DNA from: Desulfobacterales bacterium
Lineage (GTDB): Bacteria; Desulfobacterota; DSM-4660; Desulfatiglandales; JALVZP01
Reading direction: 5' to 3'
DNA: 38,067 bases
NCBI GenBank assembly: GCA_027064285.1
Contig: JAMOPX010000174.1
Span: 1 to 38,067, forward strand
Within the stretch, counting starts at the first letter, position 1. The number at the start of each line of letters is the position of its first letter. A program made the translations under genes and the position numbers. The notes beneath the pieces were generated by a model that made no database searches, was not told the origin of the DNA, and saw only the letters and a program-made list of their open reading frames with translations. Of the stretch, positions 3,020 through 37,641 are shown in pieces.

Positions 3020-5528
3020 AGTATATTAAATTTATTCCTATAAAATACTCTGTATAGTTGGCTGATTTGCTGATTTGAGAGCTAAGTTGTGCTTCAAAAT
3101 GAGGAGTTATAAGCTTTCGTAGTAAAACTTTTATCTTATATCCTAATCCAAAAAATTCTCTTCCTCTGTATTTTTCTCCTATTTCAGGACTAAATGGATA
3201 ATGCGGTGAGTCTTTTGTTTTATAATAAAGTGCACCAGATCCAATACTTATGTCACAAAGGTATGTCCTGCATTTTTTTGTTTGTAAATGGAAAAAAGGG
3301 CCTGTTACAAGTAGAACCTTTGGGCTAAAGTATCCGCCATGTCCATATGTAAAGTAATCAGAGTTATGTTCAAAATGTTCTGCAGAAAGAAAAAGTCCTG
3401 TAGAATAATTTCCAGACTCTAACAGATATGTTTTTCCTATACTAATTCCTCCAAAATATCTGTGGTTGTCCCAGATATGTCTTCCCCAGATATAATTATA
3501 GCCACCTTTAAGAGAAAGCCACAAAGAATCGGGAAGAGAAAATGTTTTACCTGCTTCAAGACCAAGCTTTAGGACTCTACCCCATCTTTTTTCACTGTAA
3601 GGGTCTTTTAAACCAACATAGGATAAAATGCTTTCTTCTATTGGTTCTTGATAAAACTGAATATATCTATTTTTCTGTCTTATTCCAAAAAGGAATGTAA
3701 GCATTGGGTATACAGGACCATTTAAAGAAGTTGTTCCAACCTTGAGATGATAATGAGTATAGCCTTCTTTTTCCCATACTATTTCAGGATAAACTGCCCA
3801 CGTAGAAGTTATAAGATTGTGTCTTAAAGTATGCCTAAAAGCCTTTCCAACATAAGGAAAATCAGGGCTGCTTCCTGATGAAAGCCTTTTTGTTGTGAGA
3901 ATAAAATCTATTTTCTTCCCAAGAATATAAGGATAAGAGAAAGTGTAGGATGTGTAAAATTCATTTAACTGTGATGTTCCAGAGGTTCCTGCCTTGTGTC
4001 TATAATAAGTTGATATTCCAACAGAAGGAGAATCTGCATTAAAATAGCATGTGTTTTTGTCATGATATATCTGGGAAGCAGTTATTGGACATTCATGTGA
4101 AAAGAAAAAATCTGCTGAAATCTTTTTTGTCTTTTCTCTTTTGGCTACTTTCTTTGCATAATGAAATGCCTTTTTTAGATCTTTCTTAGAATAGATTCCA
4201 AGAACCATCTTTACACTTGAAGGATCATCTTGCTCTTTTATAAAAAAAGGAAGCGCATCTTTTATCTTTTTTTCTTTATAAAAAACCCACGCTAAAAATT
4301 TTTTAGCTTTCTTATTTTTTGGATCTAAAAAGAGGATCTTTTTTAGGTAAAGCTCACATTCTTTGTATTCTTTTTTGTCATAAGCTTTGCTTGCTTTTTT
4401 GAAATATAGACCTATCTTAAGTTTCTTAAATCTATCACTTTTATATCTTTCAGAAATCTTCAGTGCTTCATTATATCTTTCTAACTTCATAAGGACATAA
4501 GCTAAGGGAAAAGCTGTCTTTTCAGAAGGTCCTTTTTTATAAAGAGACAAAAAGATTTTGTATGCTTCATTATATCTTTTTCTTTTAATATACCACCATC
4601 CTAAGATATTTAATGTTGCTTCATCATTTGGATTAATTAAAAGAATCTCTTTTGCTATTTTTTCTATATTCTTAGATGAAGGAAGATATGCTTTAAGAAC
4701 ATATAACCTCAGATTTTTCAACTCATTTTTGTAAGAAGAAGAAAATTCTTTATTCTTCATGTCTTTTTTTATTATTTGATCAAGCCTTTCATATGAAATC
4801 ATGTTCTTTAGCTTGTAAAACACAGCTATTCTGAGTTTTTCATCTTTACTGCATTTAAGAAGCGCATAATATATTCTTATAGCCTCTTTTTTTTCTCCTT
4901 TTTCAGAAAGGATCTTTGCGGTCTTAAAATAAAGATAAGGAAAAATACATCTTTTTAACTCATTTCTATAGCTAAGCTTAATTAGTTCTTTTAAATCAGC
5001 TCTCTTTTGAGCATACAAAAGTCTTTCTCTTAGAATGTTTCTTTCTATTTTTTCTTTCCATATCTTTCTTTGTCCTTTATTCAGCTTAGGCAAATACAAA
5101 CGAGCTTCTTTGTATTTTTTTTCTTTCATTAAGATACCAAGAAGCATAGGAGTTGTTATTTTTAGTTGATATTTTGATCTCACAAGCTCTTTTAAAATAG
5201 GAATAGCCTTTTTTTCATTATTTTCATTGACATACGAACATGCTAATCCAAACAGTGCATTTAATTTGGTATCTTCATATTTAGAGGCCATCTTAAAAAG
5301 AATAATAGCCTTTTTGTATTTTCCTTTATTGTAGAGATTCCATGCTTCTGTTATATAAAGTTTTCCAATAGTAGGCGATATTTTTTCTTTTTTTTCTTTT
5401 TGTTTTATTGTGATCGGAGCTGTTCCCTGCTGTGGCTTTTGTTTTAATTTTATTATCTTAGCGTGTGCCAGTGCCGAAAAAATAATCAAAATAGATATAG
5501 CAAGTAATTTATTATTTATCTTTTTCAC
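2991..5528 (-). CDS. bcsC: Cellulose synthase operon protein C (TPR + outer-membrane beta-barrel)
   Basis: Signal peptide, then ~450 aa of TPR-like repeats, then a Gly/aromatic-rich beta-strand region ending in a terminal aromatic (..HYKLF). It is the last gene of the bcsA-B-Z-C order and overlaps bcsZ by 17 nt. Confidence 0.8.
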   Translation of the reverse strand: MKKINNKLLAISILIIFSALAHAKIIKLKQKPQQGTAPITIKQKEKKEKISPTIGKLYITEAWNLYNKGKYKKAIILFKMASKYEDTKLNALFGLACSYVNENNEKKAIPILKELVRSKYQLKITTPMLLGILMKEKKYKEARLYLPKLNKGQRKIWKEKIERNILRERLLYAQKRADLKELIKLSYRNELKRCIFPYLYFKTAKILSEKGEKKEAIRIYYALLKCSKDEKLRIAVFYKLKNMISYERLDQIIKKDMKNKEFSSSYKNELKNLRLYVLKAYLPSSKNIEKIAKEILLINPNDEATLNILGWWYIKRKRYNEAYKIFLSLYKKGPSEKTAFPLAYVLMKLERYNEALKISERYKSDRFKKLKIGLYFKKASKAYDKKEYKECELYLKKILFLDPKNKKAKKFLAWVFYKEKKIKDALPFFIKEQDDPSSVKMVLGIYSKKDLKKAFHYAKKVAKREKTKKISADFFFSHECPITASQIYHDKNTCYFNADSPSVGISTYYRHKAGTSGTSQLNEFYTSYTFSYPYILGKKIDFILTTKRLSSGSSPDFPYVGKAFRHTLRHNLITSTWAVYPEIVWEKEGYTHYHLKVGTTSLNGPVYPMLTFLFGIRQKNRYIQFYQEPIEESILSYVGLKDPYSEKRWGRVLKLGLEAGKTFSLPDSLWLSLKGGYNYIWGRHIWDNHRYFGGISIGKTYLLESGNYSTGLFLSAEHFEHNSDYFTYGHGGYFSPKVLLVTGPFFHLQTKKCRTYLCDISIGSGALYYKTKDSPHYPFSPEIGEKYRGREFFGLGYKIKVLLRKLITPHFEAQLSSQISKSANYTEYFIGINLIYFIKPHYKLF

Positions 5529-6564
5529 TCTTCCAATCTTTTGCTAACAAATATAAGCTAAAGAAATAATAATTTTTTTTATCTAAGGATAGTTTCTGCT
5601 CAGCAATCTTAAATAACTTTTTTGAAACAGATTCTTCACCTATGCTTTCAGCAACCCTTGCATATATGGCATAATATCCTGATGGAGCTTCTTTTAATGA
5701 AAAACTGTCATGAACAAGATCAACCCACAAAGGGATATAAGAGAATCTTTTGTAAAGGTCTATGATTCTGTTACCTATACTATTCAAGCTCTTTTCTTTT
5801 TCCATGCATAGATAGAGAGACACTCTTACTGCATTATATCCAAAGTATATGCTCTTTTCTTCATGGATAAATATCCCGTCTTCTTTTAGAAGAATCCAAT
5901 CTGAAGGAAGTTTAAGCAGTCCAAATCTTGCCTTTGAAAGTAACCATACTGAATCCTGATAAATTTTTTCCCAAAATTTTTTATTTTCAAATTTTGAAAA
6001 CAATTTAAATGCTGGAAGTATTAGATAGGAAGGATTCAAAATAAGAAAATCTTTATCCTTAAATCCAAAATATCCTGGCAAAAGAAACATATGGCCTTTC
6101 CAAGATATACAAAGCTCCTTTCTTATATCTTTCAAAATTTCAATAGCATATTTTTTGTAATCTTCATCTTTCCATTTTTTAAAAGCCTTAAGAAGGGCAT
6201 AAGCAATTAAGATATCACCATCACTGGCATTATTATAATCAATTACCTGCCAATTTCCATTAGGTCTTCTTCCCCAGCTCCATGCAAAAAGTTTATCTTT
6301 TCTTATCTGAAGATTATCTTTTGTCCATTTCCAGACAAGATCAAATGTTTTTTTATCATTATAGATTGTGGAAAGAAGCATTCCATATCCTTGCCCTTCT
6401 GAATGACTGATCTGACCATTTTGATAATCAATTACTCTTCCCTCATTGTTTATAAAGTTTTTTTTATATTCCTTCCATAAGGAAGGATCTAAAGGAAAAG
6501 CTGCTGACGAAAAAAGAATAGAGAATGCTATAATAAAATTAATCTTCAATATACTCTTCCACAT
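5512..6564 (-). CDS. bcsZ: Endo-1,4-beta-glucanase, glycoside hydrolase family 8
   Basis: GH8 signature SEGQGYGML and a signal peptide. It sits between bcsB and bcsC and overlaps bcsB by 26 nt. Confidence 0.85.
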   Translation of the reverse strand: MWKSILKINFIIAFSILFSSAAFPLDPSLWKEYKKNFINNEGRVIDYQNGQISHSEGQGYGMLLSTIYNDKKTFDLVWKWTKDNLQIRKDKLFAWSWGRRPNGNWQVIDYNNASDGDILIAYALLKAFKKWKDEDYKKYAIEILKDIRKELCISWKGHMFLLPGYFGFKDKDFLILNPSYLILPAFKLFSKFENKKFWEKIYQDSVWLLSKARFGLLKLPSDWILLKEDGIFIHEEKSIYFGYNAVRVSLYLCMEKEKSLNSIGNRIIDLYKRFSYIPLWVDLVHDSFSLKEAPSGYYAIYARVAESIGEESVSKKLFKIAEQKLSLDKKNYYFFSLYLLAKDWKSEKDK

Positions 6565-11261: not shown

Positions 11262-11274
11262 CTCATCTGTAATC
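11262..11274 (-). repeat. 13-nt motif ctcatctgtaatc, the exact inverted partner of 11553-11565
   Basis: Exact reverse complement of gattacagatgag. It has the same orientation as the downstream bcsA gene. Confidence 0.6.
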
Positions 11275-11447
11275 AAAAAATATCACGAAATAATGGTAAA
11301 GCAAAAAATGGACAGGAAAGATGCAACCTTAACTAATAAAAAATCCAGAATAAGCAAAGATTAAGAAAATTAGCTGATTATCATCTACAAGTATCCAAAT
11401 ATAGGTTTAAGACCCAAAATTTCTGCTGTGAAGCTGTTTTTTGCCTA

Positions 11448-11534
11448 ATAACTGATCTTACGCAAAAGTTTTTATCTCACGAGGGAGAGATACCAGCGAA
11501 TTAAGACAGAAACTTTTTCGTAAGGTCAGTTAAT
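11448..11534 (-). mobile_element. 87-bp ends-only (internally deleted) member of the foldback element family, inverted relative to the full copies
   Basis: The left half (atcttacgcaaaagtttttatctcacgagggagagataccagcgaat) is the reverse complement of the right end of copy A (13688-13735). The right half (taagacagaaactttttcgtaaggtcag) is the reverse complement of the left end of copies A and B. The ~310-bp core is absent. Confidence 0.75.
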
Positions 11535-11552
11535 AAAAAAAAGCTTAGTTGT

Positions 11553-11565
11553 GATTACAGATGAG
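11553..11565 (+). repeat. 13-nt motif gattacagatgag, 3 nt upstream of the sHSP -35 box
   Basis: Exact inverted partner of 11262-11274. Twelve of its 13 nt recur at 13888-13900. Confidence 0.6.
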
Positions 11566-13291: not shown

Positions 13292-13347
13292 AAATTATAC
13301 AAATACCAATTAGGCGTTCACTTTATAAATTTTTTCCATAACTTTCC

Positions 13348-13750
13348 ATAACTGATCTTATGCAAAAGTTTCTATCTTATCTATATATATAGTATAGGGG
13401 TAAGACTGGAAATAGATATAGGGGCAAAAGGGTTTTTCGGATGCGACTGTCGAAAGGGCGCTGTCTCTTCATGGCTTATCTGTGGGGGAAACCGCAGCCC
13501 GTCACTCAAGTTTCTCCAAAACAAGCATATTCCTTTACCAGACATCCAAGCCCATTCATTGATAAGCATATTTGATTAACAGCTGAGTGACGGGAATGCG
13601 GAGGGGGCAGGTATCCCCCACAGATAAGTCACAGAAGAGACCAGCCCGAGAGACTCGGAGCAGAAGAAAAACCCTTTTGCCCCTATACCGCATTCGCTGG
13701 TATCTCTCTCTCGTGAGATAAAAACTTTTGTTCCATAAGGAACTATCAGT
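13348..13750 (+). repeat. ~400-bp GC-rich foldback element, copy A (unclassified structured-RNA gene or MITE-like element)
   Basis: It has terminal inverted repeats and a long imperfect central hairpin. Perfect stems are 13417-13438/13666-13687 (22 bp), 13475-13489/13614-13628 (15 bp) and 13498-13508/13584-13594 (11 bp), with a 75-nt apical region. It is closely similar along its length to 36864-37260. Element boundaries are uncertain by tens of nt. Confidence 0.8.
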
Positions 13751-13887
13751 CAGCCATTTGTTTGTTGATGATAAAATTATATAGAAATTTCTTAAAGGGG
13801 GATTTTAAACCAATAGTGGTATAATTTTCTTTACTTATCATCGGTTCATCTCCTAGAATTTTTGTCCCTGTAGAGGGATAGTTTTTT

Positions 13888-13900
13888 AATTACAGATGAG
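13888..13900 (+). repeat. Third copy of the attacagatgag motif, 13 nt upstream of the tRNA-Lys -35 box
   Basis: aattacagatgag shares 12 nt exactly with 11554-11565. Confidence 0.55.
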
Positions 13901-14101: not shown

Positions 14102-14192
14102 ATCATGAAATTAGCCACCTATTAGTCACCTTTTTGCGAAAGACATTATAAGGAATGTCATAATAAGGCTTTTGGATCATGCTTCTGGGTTA

Positions 14193-14236
14193 TACCAATA
14201 CCAATTAGGAGTTCACTTTATAAATTTTCCATAACT
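14193..14236 (+). repeat. Solo left-end fragment of the foldback element family
   Basis: taccaataccaattaggagttcactttataaattttccataactgacctta matches the left flank and first ~13 nt of copy A (13303-13360), then diverges. Confidence 0.65.
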
Positions 14237-14274
14237 GACCTTACCTTAACTTCTTGAAAAGATATATAGTTTAC

Positions 14275-22872: not shown

Positions 22873-23139
22873 TTGGCCGTGCTAGGCGGGGAGTTAGCGG
22901 TTCCCTGTACCCGAAATCCGCTTATGCGGGGCCGAATGCCCTATGAGGTCTGCCGCAGGAGATCTTTTTCTGTCTCAGGAGATGGTAGTAGCCCCATGCG
23001 ACAGGTCTCTTACGAACCCCGTCAGGCCCGGAAGGGAGCAGCGGTAAGTAAGTAGGCCTGTGCCATGGAAGGAGCTACCATTTATCCTGGGGCAGGAAAG
23101 GTCTACTGTGAGGCAGATCGAGTAGGGATGCACGGCCAA
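22873..23139 (+). ncRNA. ffs: Signal recognition particle RNA, long (Bacillus-type, Alu-domain-containing) form
   Basis: The 5' Alu-domain sequence ggccgtgctaggcggggagttagcggttccctgtacc...ggggccgaatgcc closely parallels B. subtilis scRNA. Conserved domain IV motif gtcaggcccggaagggagcagc. The 3' end gcacggccaa pairs with the 5' end. It is a GC-rich island. Confidence 0.9.
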
Positions 23140-29272: not shown

Positions 29273-29305
29273 CTTTTCTGCTCCTTTTTTGATTTTATTA
29301 AACAC

Positions 29306-34344: not shown

Positions 34345-36822
34345 ATGCCAGATATTTCTTTTCCATATATACTTCCTTTAAAACCAAGTTTTCTTACACA
34401 TAAATTTCTTCATCTACTTTTTAAACACATAAACATCGACAAGGAATTTGCAGAGAAATTGAAATCTATATCAAAAGAAGGGGTAGTAATTTATGTAGCA
34501 AAATATGCTTCTTATTTTGATCTTTTACTATATCATTATTGCTTACGCAAAGCCAGACTCCCTTATCCAAGACTTTTTTTTGATATAAATTTAATGCCTT
34601 ATATCTCTATAACTGAGCTTGGTAAATTAATAGCTTCATATACAAAATTTTTTCTTAAAAATGGTTCTTTTCCTTCACCTTATGAAACAGGTTTTTATAA
34701 GCATCTTCTTAAGAAGAAGCTTACTTCTATGGTTTTTCTTATAAATCCAACTCGATTCTCTCATTATTTCGTAGAAAAAAAAACAGATCCAATAGATTAT
34801 TTAATACAATTTCAAAAAAACCTTTCTTTTCCTATATATATAGTGCCTATTATAATATTCTATAAAAGTGATCCAGAAAAATCCCCTTCTTGGATATCTA
34901 ACCTATTGTTTTCTTATAGAGATAAACCCGGATTTATAACCAAGATAGCCCTTTTTTTTAAACAGTATAGAAAAGCACTCATAGATATTGGGGAACCTAT
35001 AAATTTAAAGAATTATATACAAGACCATGATGCACAGGAGCTTTCCTATAAGCTGAGAAATGAACTTATGGATATAATAGATCGCCATAAAAGAGCTGTT
35101 TTGGGGCCAGTAGTTAAGTCAAAAGCCCAAATAAAAGAGTTGGTGTTAAGAGATATTAAAATTGAAGAAGCAATTTATAAAATGGCAAAAAATGACAAAA
35201 AAAAGATAAAAGAGTTAAAAAAGAAAGCAGAAAGCTATTTTGAAGAAATAGCTTCAGACTACAACATAACTTATATAATTATATTCTATAAGCTTTTGAC
35301 ATGGTTTTGGAAAAAAATTTTTCAAGGTATAGAGGTGCCAGAATCTGATTTCAGTCTTATAAGGAGCTGGACAAAAAAGGGATATCCTGTGGTTTATGTG
35401 CCTTCTCACAAGAGCCATGTAGATTATTTGCTTCTAAATTATCTTCTATTTGATCACCATATTCATCCTCCTCGGATTGCTGCTGGCAGAAATCTGGCTT
35501 TTTGGCCTATGGGTTATATATTTAGAAAGTGTGGAGCATTTTTTATCAGAAGATCTTTTAAGGGTGCAAAGTTATACACCCTGGTGTTTGAGCGATATAT
35601 AAAGATCCTACTCCAAGAAGGATATCCAATAGAGTTTTTTATAGAAGGAGGTAGAAGTAGAAGTGGTAAACTGGAATTTCCAAAAACTGGATTCTTATCA
35701 ATCTTATTAGAGGCATGGAAAGAAGGTTACTGTAGGGATATTGTTTTTATTCCTGTGTCAATAACCTATGATACAGTTATAGAGGAAAAGTCATATGTAA
35801 AAGAAGTAAAAGGATTAGAGAAAGAGCCGGAAAGTTTTATGCAATTACTAAAAGCCAGAAATATATTAAAAAAGAAATATGGGAAAATATATGTTAGATT
35901 TGCTAAACCAACCTTGCTCAGTGAATATTCTGCTAATCTGGATAAAAAAAATGAACTAACCAATTCTTTATCCTTTTATTTAGTAAGAGCTATTAATAAA
36001 GCAACACCGATTACTCCTATACCATTTGTATCTGTACCAATAATGACAAGACTGAGAAGTGGATTTTATATCTATGAATTAGAAGAAGCATGCAAAGCTA
36101 CTTTAGATCTTTTAAGATACTGTAATGCCCCACTAATTCCCAAGATAGAGAAAATTACTCATGTTGTACAAAATGCTATTTCTATCCTTTTAAAAAGGGA
36201 TATACTGTTTAAAATAAAAGATAAATCTCAAAACAATTTTTTATATTATTTAAATAAAAAAAAGAGTTTTGAACTTAGTTATTACAAAAATAATATAATA
36301 CATTTTTTTATACCATACTCTTTTGTGGCCATTTCTCTTCTTTCTTCTCAGGGTGAGATAACCAGTGTTAATCGAATAAAAAAGGACTACTTAATACTTA
36401 AAAAGCTTTTTAAATATGAATTTATTTATGGTAAAGAGGCGGAAGAAGAGATCGAAGAAGCATTAACCTATTTTTATGAAAAGGCTTATTTAAGCTATGA
36501 AAGTGATGGTTTTAGACTCACAGTCAAGGGTAGAAAAACAATTATAATGTGGGCGGAACTATTGAGAAATTATATAGAAGCTTATTGGATTGCTATAAGA
36601 GTATTTAATACACAGAAGAAAAGAATAAGAGAAAAAGAACTGCTAAAAAAAATGAAAACCGAAGGAGAAAACTTGTATAAACTTCATATAATAAAATGCT
36701 TAGATTCTATTTCATATCCTATGTTTAGAAATGCTCTTAAATATATAAAGAGAAATATTTCACTTGAAGAAATCCCTCATCTTTCTCAATGGTTGTTTTC
36801 TCTTTTACAGAAATTTTCATAA
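34345..36822 (+). CDS. plsB: Glycerol-3-phosphate acyltransferase
   Basis: 825 aa. Acyltransferase motif I HKSHVDYLLL (HX4D), FFIRR, and motif III FIEGGRSRSGK. Confidence 0.85.
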   Translation: MPDISFPYILPLKPSFLTHKFLHLLFKHINIDKEFAEKLKSISKEGVVIYVAKYASYFDLLLYHYCLRKARLPYPRLFFDINLMPYISITELGKLIASYTKFFLKNGSFPSPYETGFYKHLLKKKLTSMVFLINPTRFSHYFVEKKTDPIDYLIQFQKNLSFPIYIVPIIIFYKSDPEKSPSWISNLLFSYRDKPGFITKIALFFKQYRKALIDIGEPINLKNYIQDHDAQELSYKLRNELMDIIDRHKRAVLGPVVKSKAQIKELVLRDIKIEEAIYKMAKNDKKKIKELKKKAESYFEEIASDYNITYIIIFYKLLTWFWKKIFQGIEVPESDFSLIRSWTKKGYPVVYVPSHKSHVDYLLLNYLLFDHHIHPPRIAAGRNLAFWPMGYIFRKCGAFFIRRSFKGAKLYTLVFERYIKILLQEGYPIEFFIEGGRSRSGKLEFPKTGFLSILLEAWKEGYCRDIVFIPVSITYDTVIEEKSYVKEVKGLEKEPESFMQLLKARNILKKKYGKIYVRFAKPTLLSEYSANLDKKNELTNSLSFYLVRAINKATPITPIPFVSVPIMTRLRSGFYIYELEEACKATLDLLRYCNAPLIPKIEKITHVVQNAISILLKRDILFKIKDKSQNNFLYYLNKKKSFELSYYKNNIIHFFIPYSFVAISLLSSQGEITSVNRIKKDYLILKKLFKYEFIYGKEAEEEIEEALTYFYEKAYLSYESDGFRLTVKGRKTIIMWAELLRNYIEAYWIAIRVFNTQKKRIREKELLKKMKTEGENLYKLHIIKCLDSISYPMFRNALKYIKRNISLEEIPHLSQWLFSLLQKFS

Positions 36823-36863
36823 TATAGTCATCTGCATAATTGCGAATAACTATAAATGTAATA

Positions 36864-37260
36864 ATAACAGACCTTATGCAAAAGTTTCTGTCTTATCTGT
36901 ATGCAGTATAGGGGTAAGACTGGAAGTGGAATAGGGGCAAGGGGGTTTTTCGAATGCGACTGTCGGAAGGGCGCTGTCTCTTCTCTGACTTATCTGTGGG
37001 GGAAACCGCAGCCCGTCACTCAAGTTTCTCCAAAACAAGCATATTCCTTTACCAGACATCCAAGTCCATGCATGGGTAAGTATATTTGATTAACAGCTGA
37101 GTGACGGGAATGCAGAGGGGGCAGATATCCCCCGCAAATAAGTCAGAGAAGAGCCCAGCCCGAGAGACTCAGAGCAAACGAAAAACCTTTTTGACCCAAT
37201 ACCACATTCGTTGTTATTCTTCCCTTGTGAGATAAACCATTTTGCGTAAGGTCAGATAAT
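36864..37260 (+). repeat. ~400-bp GC-rich foldback element, copy B
   Basis: Collinear with copy A in the same orientation. A 76-nt block (36989-37064) is identical to 13475-13550 and there is a further 31-nt identical block. Terminal inverted repeats agaccttatgcaaaag / cttttgcgtaaggtcag. Confidence 0.8.
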
Positions 37261-37305
37261 AAATTTAGTATTTCACAAAATTTTATGTTTTGCGGAATAC
37301 TGTAA

Positions 37306-37641
37306 TTATTTTTTAAAATTTTTTAGATCTATTACTTTAGAAGAATGTTGTTCTTTAAAGGATTTTTTATTTTGTGGTTGTTGAGTATCTGCTAACTTAT
37401 CCTCTAAATTGCTTATTTCTATTTCTCCAAGTCTTAGTGGCACCCCTCCCATAGTGAATGTGGCACCATTTATATATTCTTCTTTCAATATCCATCGTAC
37501 TATCTGAGCAGGTATGCTCAAAACAAGTAAATCCACTTGATACCATCCTTCTTTTATATCAGGTTCAATCTTTTCTATTCTGGCATATACTGTAGGCTTG
37601 CCCATATAATATATCAAAACAAGATCTCCCATCTTTCTCAT
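37306..37641 (-). CDS. 111-aa hypothetical protein
   Basis: Clean ORF with a plausible RBS (GGAGGCTAAGAAATG on the - strand). I recognise no family. Confidence 0.45.
   Translation of the reverse strand: MRKMGDLVLIYYMGKPTVYARIEKIEPDIKEGWYQVDLLVLSIPAQIVRWILKEEYINGATFTMGGVPLRLGEIEISNLEDKLADTQQPQNKKSFKEQHSSKVIDLKNFKK

Follow-up and report, generated by a model that had tools for sequence, protein, structure and literature searches.

A probable new MITE family with 5-bp target-site duplications in uncultivated Thermodesulfobacteriota-like bacteria

Introduction

Bacterial MITEs are elements of up to ~400 bp that carry terminal inverted repeats, are flanked by target duplications, lack a transposase and form long stable stem-loops (Delihas 2011, PMC3184786). 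The MITE-like element IMU makes a 5-bp target duplication (PMC3184786). Here we analyse a 38,067-nt stretch of DNA from a Desulfobacterales bacterium (the window), which holds two long copies, A and B, of a non-coding repeat.

The repeat is like Correia/NEMIS of Neisseria, RUP of Streptococcus pneumoniae, ERIC/IRU and Nezha of cyanobacteria (PMC3184786) in being small, non-coding, multicopy and mostly intergenic. With bacterial MITEs it also shares terminal inverted repeats combined with a target-site duplication, a predicted long stable stem-loop, and nested or internally deleted variants. Unlike them, it stands at the upper size limit (385-390 nt), its complementarity runs over the whole length (about 130 pairs) and not over the termini alone, and its hosts are uncultivated Thermodesulfobacteriota-like bacteria. 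No sequence similarity to the named elements was seen within plasmid, phage and Rfam searches. Correia duplicates TA, whereas the duplication here is of 5 bp at TAWTA.

The MITE-like elements derived from the Tn3 family or ISSod9 (IMU, 'TIMEs') come close in having a 5-bp duplication and a preference for AT-rich targets. Tn3-family termini are ~38 bp long and typically begin GGGG. In contrast, the termini described here begin ACTGACC, and no Tn3-type transposase was seen; the likeness to Tn3-derived elements is one of resemblance only, not of membership.

Results

Copy B and its flanks

Copy B and the features that adjoin it are the following.

36867..37256, + strand: MITE copy B, full length 390 nt, a long imperfect foldback hairpin, delimited by end-to-end alignment with nine full-length metagenome copies
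36862..36866, no strand: left 5-bp target-site duplication of copy B, TAATA, read from the sequence and included in a duplication test over 25 copies
37257..37261, no strand: right 5-bp target-site duplication of copy B, TAATA, on the same basis
36867..36898, + strand: left terminal inverted repeat of copy B (ACAGACCTTATGCAAAAGTTTCTGTCTTATC...), an exact match to the terminus pattern
37225..37256, - strand: right terminal inverted repeat of copy B (reverse complement TCTGACCTTACGCAAAATGGTTTATCTCA...), with 3 mismatches to the terminus pattern, also found as an inverted-repeat pair
36823..36854, no strand: small palindrome hp1 (TATAGTCATCTGCATAATTGCGAATAACTATA), immediately left of copy B, missing at orthologous empty sites
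37266..37304, no strand: small palindrome hp2 (TAGTATTTCACAAAAT...ATTTTGCGGAATACTGTA-like), immediately right of copy B, missing at orthologous empty sites

The termini of copy B are inverted and carry ACTGACCTTACGCAAAAGTTT, as do both ends of the element in general; the inverted termini extend over ~21-35 bp, and the terminus can also be written ACTGACCTTACGCAAAAG. An earlier note on this DNA had placed copy B between a plsB gene and a small convergent ORF, and we confirmed this context: a PlsB-like acyltransferase gene ends at 36822 on the left and a convergent 111-aa ORF ends at 37306 on the right.

The palindromes hp1 and hp2 are related to each other and are built on TATAGTTATCCGCA and TATAGTATTCCGCA. 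Beyond the window, hp1 also adjoins MITE copies in L044, L053 and L047, which are not orthologous to the window locus, and hp2 is found in L044, L053, L056 and L039 (hp-type palindromes at L044:5121-5152 and 5576-5615, L053:4448-4479 and 4910-4950, L047:3863-3894, L056:~990 and L039:~9990). They may represent a REP-like unit that is either targeted by the MITE or travels with it.

Insertions in the window and in related genomes

The window is chromosomal, with genes for EF-G, Mfd, MsbA, cytochrome c3 and the large SRP RNA and a cellulose-synthase operon; it has a GC content of ~34% and contains at least four families of small repeats. The family of copy B contributes three copies and one remnant to these 38 kb; one unoccupied target is recognisable as well.

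13351..13730, + strand: MITE copy A, right terminal ~12 nt lost, inside an R3-family repeat (about 13295-13824), delimited by blastn against copy B and by uninterrupted paralogues of the host repeat
11451..11530, - strand: mini copy C, 80 nt, both MITE termini joined, found by repeat search and terminus pattern
14234..14244, + strand: 11-nt remnant of the MITE left end (ACTGACCTTAC), preceded by a CCATA flank as in copy A, recognised by host-repeat comparison
29295..29299, no strand: unoccupied target TTATT, filled at the orthologous site in L059

The termini of the element were defined from mini copy C, which is oriented opposite to A and B and is flanked by direct TAATA repeats (11446-11450 and 11531-11535). 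For copy A, a right end at 13743 was considered as a decayed terminus and rejected: CCATAAGGAACTATCAGTCAGCC is part of the host repeat, and A ends at 13730.

Comparison of occupied with unoccupied sites supports insertion of copies A, B and C. The window PlsB-like protein had no exact match on record; by homology search, relatives were found at 90, 81, 77 and 64% identity. Where PlsB is 81, 77 and 64% identical (L060, L061 and L062), plsB directly meets the 3' end of the convergent small ORF, and ~480 nt (36823 to 37305, including copy B, hp1 and hp2) are missing. Conversely, L059, which is 94-97% identical to the window at the nucleotide level, carries a 251-nt family member at a site that is empty in the window (29299/29300). 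Mini copy C splits an R2 repeat that is unbroken in L022, L026 and L048, with a single TAATA there (CAATA in L022). Copy A likewise splits an R3-family repeat with unbroken paralogues at L048:7478-7610 and L011:1143-1269. Insertions thus differ among genomes that are 94-97% identical, which makes them a marker of recent transposition.

The two host repeats form families in their own right. R2 is ~214 nt long with inverted termini CTCATCTGTAATC (window 11262-11565; L022:6105-6318; L026:11548-11765; L048:~425-524; a half-site at window 13888-13900) and is probably another MITE. R3 is ~135 nt long with termini TTATACCAATAC, often preceded by CAGCAATTCTCGGTGAGAAAC; in addition to the two unbroken paralogues, copies lie at window 13295-13350 plus 13731-13824, window 14190-14233 and L016:~1509-1545. 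Two window copies of R3 each carry a MITE end at one and the same CCATA inside the repeat, copy A in one case and the 11-nt remnant at 14234-14244 in the other, which suggests either a site preference or copying of a composite.

The nearest named homologues of the window PlsB are 46% identical and belong to Thermodesulfobacteriota or 'Deltaproteobacteria' MAGs. The large bacterial SRP RNA at 22877-23135 (162 bits) has 58% GC and the tRNAs have 55-59% GC; in a genome of ~34% GC such values would be consistent with a thermophilic host.

The wider family

We scanned metagenome sequences with the terminus pattern alone and obtained 57 loci; because loci were picked by this pattern, the conservation seen at the terminus is inflated. 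In the window the pattern matched 5 times against 0.00 matches expected by chance. Together, the fetched loci and the window hold 92 ends and 25 complete terminal pairs. Apart from A and B, nine full-length copies of 382-390 nt were recovered, 80-90% identical to B. The copies fall into sizes of 80, 147, 159, 167, 180-182, 210-215, 251, 263, 293-302 and 382-390 nt, and in several derivatives the deleted segment is symmetrical about the hairpin apex (for example, B positions 13-124 joined to 302-401). They are scattered over the intergenic DNA of several related uncultivated bacteria, with 64/65 copies intergenic by a crude ORF call. Besides the window's own genome, assemblies with family members are GCA_053937345.1, GCA_053988215.1, GCA_053985365.1, GCA_054001455.1, GCA_053939655.1 and GCA_053991915.1.

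A 5-bp direct duplication was perfect in 11/25 complete copies, and a further 6/25 matched at 4/5 positions. The mean match was 3.88, compared with 2.74 +/- 0.14 when flanks were shuffled among copies (permutation p<1e-4). Several duplications, among them TGATA, AGATA, TAAGA and AAAAA, repeat directly and not in inverted form, indicating a duplicated target that is no part of the terminal repeat. The 92 end flanks give an AT-rich, palindromic target consensus, T/TAWTA/A. Derivatives without the core, the smallest of 80 nt, retain the two termini and intact duplications, and they are found as widely as full-length copies. Therefore, the GC-richer core of ~250 nt, to which the 76-nt block discussed below belongs, is dispensable for movement.

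The whole element had no match in plasmid and phage collections (blastn, distant mode), neither its core 20-mer CCGCAGCCCGTCACTCAAGT nor its terminus matched viral contigs, and in a genome collection the 20-mer gave only a chance match, which lies in GC-rich coding sequence from an Actinomycetales MAG. A public protein collection of 5.8 billion clusters contained 17 derived from the element, so that the family is apparently limited to a narrow group of uncultivated bacteria.

Related contigs were seen to differ at or near some family members. The contigs of L009 and L047 are 93% identical over 2.2 kb and hold derivatives of 180 nt (L009:2201-2380) and 215 nt (L047:3616-3830) with the same left junction and different right flanks; the size difference could reflect turnover or rearrangement at a single insertion site. 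In L066-L069 the sequence is identical up to and into a truncated MITE (about 4200-4700); from within the MITE or just beyond it, the four assemblies part into four different gene neighbourhoods. The MITE repeat has probably led to broken or wrongly joined contigs there.

Structure and coding potential

Either strand of copy B is predicted to form a ~390-nt imperfect hairpin. The + strand folds at -159.8 kcal/mol (z = -9.0 versus shuffles) and the - strand at -145.9 kcal/mol (z = -6.9), the + strand being more stable by 14 kcal/mol. Such a fold and strand difference could mark a structured non-coding RNA gene, possibly mobile, with the hairpin and especially the 76-nt block as functional product. 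The element is also GC-richer than its ~34% GC surroundings, and conservation in its core exceeds that in the subterminal arms about twofold.

An alignment of eleven full-length copies (A, B and the nine from metagenomes) argues against such a gene. RNAalifold assigned -0.9 of -149 kcal/mol to the covariation term, and both sides had changed in 5/131 pairs compared with 3.3 +/- 1.5 in shuffles, which places covariation at shuffle level. The earlier note had proposed comparing G:U with A:C mismatches across the stems to infer the transcribed strand. Run per column, this comparison gave 30 versus 21 (p = 0.26), with no significant strand bias. A structure-free alignment of the two arms did show a slight excess on the + strand, with 105 G:U-compatible and 73 A:C cells, the cells being drawn from non-independent copies. 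At the gathering threshold Rfam had no hit over the element; at E<=10 it returned eight matches, all far under the gathering scores of their families, four of which overlap the element. Consensus scans for promoters and terminators inside the element found nothing over background and no promoter/terminator pair. The orientation of the copies relative to neighbouring genes (crude ORF calls) is weakly biased at most. The core-less derivatives with intact duplications are found as widely as complete copies, and the 76-nt block varies in other copies. We regard an RNA gene as distinctly unlikely.

The extended palindrome of the element and the presence of hp1 and hp2 beside several copies would fit a palindromic repeat of the REP/BIME or IS200/IS605 type, which is mobilised by a tyrosine (RAYT) or HUH transposase that works on single-stranded hairpins. 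However, elements of that type are without long terminal inverted repeats or target-site duplications, both of which are clear here. A length of 390 nt is far above the size of a REP unit (~20-40 nt), and the variety of the duplications speaks against a fixed flanking motif, making this origin very improbable.

The small ORFs that the earlier note had listed inside the elements are present (13381-13569; 36874-37059; 36901-37089), and its view that the element is non-coding and conserved at the nucleotide level was borne out. We give next to no credence to a small protein-coding gene in the - strand frame of 111-128 codons, which is open in 7/11 full-length copies and accounts for the 17 protein clusters, but is broken in A, B, L016 and L011, has substitutions spread 51/36/37 over codon positions 1/2/3 with no third-position excess, yields clusters without a Pfam domain and has lost its bulk by deletion in most family members; the frame was rejected as a gene on the substitution pattern and its breakage in A and B. 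The same frame appears as 'hypothetical protein' in NCBI MAGs (for example DRG39_00675; L008, L010, L050 and other loci; P0121-P0137), its named carriers being labelled 'MAG: Deltaproteobacteria bacterium'. These calls are almost certainly spurious.

The 76-nt block

The earlier note had read copies A and B as collinear, with a long identical block on one strand of the upper stem, and had proposed from the stronger conservation of that strand that the block is itself functional, as an RNA segment or a protein-binding site.

36989..37064, + strand: 76-nt block, left strand of the upper stem and part of the apical region, identical to 13475-13550

Most of the underlying observations held. The two copies are collinear on the + strand, with a mean column identity of 89% (blastn 87.9% over 381 nt), and the block is exactly 76 nt long. 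The right-arm difference given in the note is present, A having CCCCCACAGATAAG where B has CCCCCGCAAATAAG, and B contains a near-perfect inverted repeat of 26 nt (36978-37003 / 37128-37153). The second identical run is real and measures 32 nt (ATATTTGATTAACAGCTGAGTGACGGGAATGC) where 31 had been counted.

For a pair with 55 differences in 396 columns, the probability of the 76-nt run was P = 0.00015 if divergence is uniform and P = 0.002-0.005 under regional or per-column rates taken from the nine other copies. Since it stays low with family-derived rates, the run is not pure chance, and this improbability counts against reading the element as an ordinary MITE.

The functional interpretation of the block was not supported. 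Any two family members are 95-97% identical over the block, and 22/77 columns vary among the nine other copies. Five other pairs share unbroken identity over 70-101 nt, in some cases on the opposite arm, as in L024-L030 with an 89-nt run on the right arm; the asymmetry is therefore specific to the A-B pair. Summed over all 55 pairs it is weak, with 235 differences in the left stem and 311 in its partner, and L024-L030 reverses it (4 differences left, 0 right). Copies A and B also have derived states in common. In or beside the block these are T at columns 170 and 188 and a CAT insert at 211-213 inside a 4-column indel; further ones lie in the left arm at columns 16, 56, 63 and 77. The L059 copy, from a genome 94-97% identical, shows the general family states at the positions derived in A and B. 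These common states point to sister copies or gene conversion. The best reading of the identity would be shared descent within the family, without a special functional RNA block: the core is least diverged in every pair, and A and B would in addition be sister copies or have converted each other in this genome. The earlier note had set recent duplication or conversion, with uniform divergence elsewhere, against its own proposal; the results largely bear out that alternative, except that divergence along the element is not uniform, being about twofold lower in the core.

This central core (alignment columns ~100-320, both arms) has a pairwise diversity of 0.04-0.09 compared with 0.12-0.23 in the subterminal arms, and the contrast holds without the divergent L030/L008 subfamily. 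In a purely parasitic element such low divergence has no obvious reason, and it weighs against the MITE reading. The same is true of the 82-90% identity of copies between hosts whose Mfd is 73% and whose S66 peptidase is 54% identical, which implies that copies spread horizontally between lineages that occur together, that they are under some constraint, or both. Because of the twofold lower divergence and this identity across diverged hosts, the ~220-nt GC-richer core might be a conserved cargo or module riding on the MITE, with full-length copies kept by selection and deleted forms purely selfish. We consider this unlikely. As a stable hairpin of RNA or DNA, the core could be useful to element or host; it might, for example, stop transcription from either side where convergent genes meet in a thermophile, or offer a platform for binding.

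Candidate partner transposases

Fetched loci totalling roughly 0.45 Mb were partly checked for transposases, by Pfam analysis of genes inward of unpaired ends and by the precomputed gene annotation of selected contigs, and yielded no transposase-bearing element with MITE termini. The genes inward of unpaired ends were ordinary housekeeping genes, and the gene annotation of five more contigs listed no transposase.

At L039:8401-8866 a solo 46-nt MITE end is immediately followed by a truncated ORF with MerR-HTH and serine-recombinase domains, a remnant of an IS607-type TnpA. The IS607 family is not known to make a 5-bp duplication. For this reason, and because the ORF is truncated at both ends, the remnant was rejected as parent. 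It is not bounded by MITE termini.

At L064:5515-5715 (- strand) a 66-aa DUF4277 fragment, which we take to be the N-terminus of an IS4/IS1634-type transposase, adjoins a left-truncated MITE. IS1634/IS4-group elements, whose transposases have an N-terminal DUF4277, make 5-6-bp duplications, and in L064 and L066-L069 the fragment has a truncated family member next to it. It is, however, not bounded by the MITE termini, and CCTGACATAAATTACCTTAGAGTTT, about 75 nt upstream of its start, resembles a MITE terminus loosely. Homologues of the fragment were fragmentary only, and its occurrences amount to one locus, present in four related assemblies (L066-L069, the same locus as L064). We treat the fragment as a lead, not a link, to the partner element.

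Discussion

Copy B is very probably a full-length, non-coding member of a previously undescribed MITE family, that is, a non-autonomous DNA transposon. The family combines terminal inverted repeats, a duplication of fixed 5-bp length, members of 80-390 nt without coding capacity, and dispersed copies that differ in presence and absence between genomes.

From these features a simple course of events can be proposed. A transposase supplied in trans, probably of the DDE type, would bind the termini and make cuts with a 5-bp stagger. The foldback over the whole length would arise from two halves that are inverted copies of each other and not from selection for an RNA helix, and deletions across the hairpin apex, often symmetrical, could have generated many of the derivatives. 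At the plsB locus, where copy B lies within the ~480-nt intergenic insert, the small palindromic unit (hp1/hp2) may have been the site of its insertion, or the two may have arrived together. An effect on neighbouring genes is possible, for example through an RNA hairpin in read-through transcripts.

The family is a new one of a well-known kind of element and opens no new mechanism; its consequences are for annotation, assembly and the tracing of mobility. Its extreme fold energy means that it could pass for a new large structured RNA, and it gives rise to false 'hypothetical protein' calls in public MAGs. Assemblies of related genomes diverge at the MITE. The defined terminus and target (5 bp, TAWTA) provide a handle for finding the responsible transposase, and insertions of the family mark recent transposition in a sulfate-reducer-like lineage that is uncultivated and apparently thermophilic.
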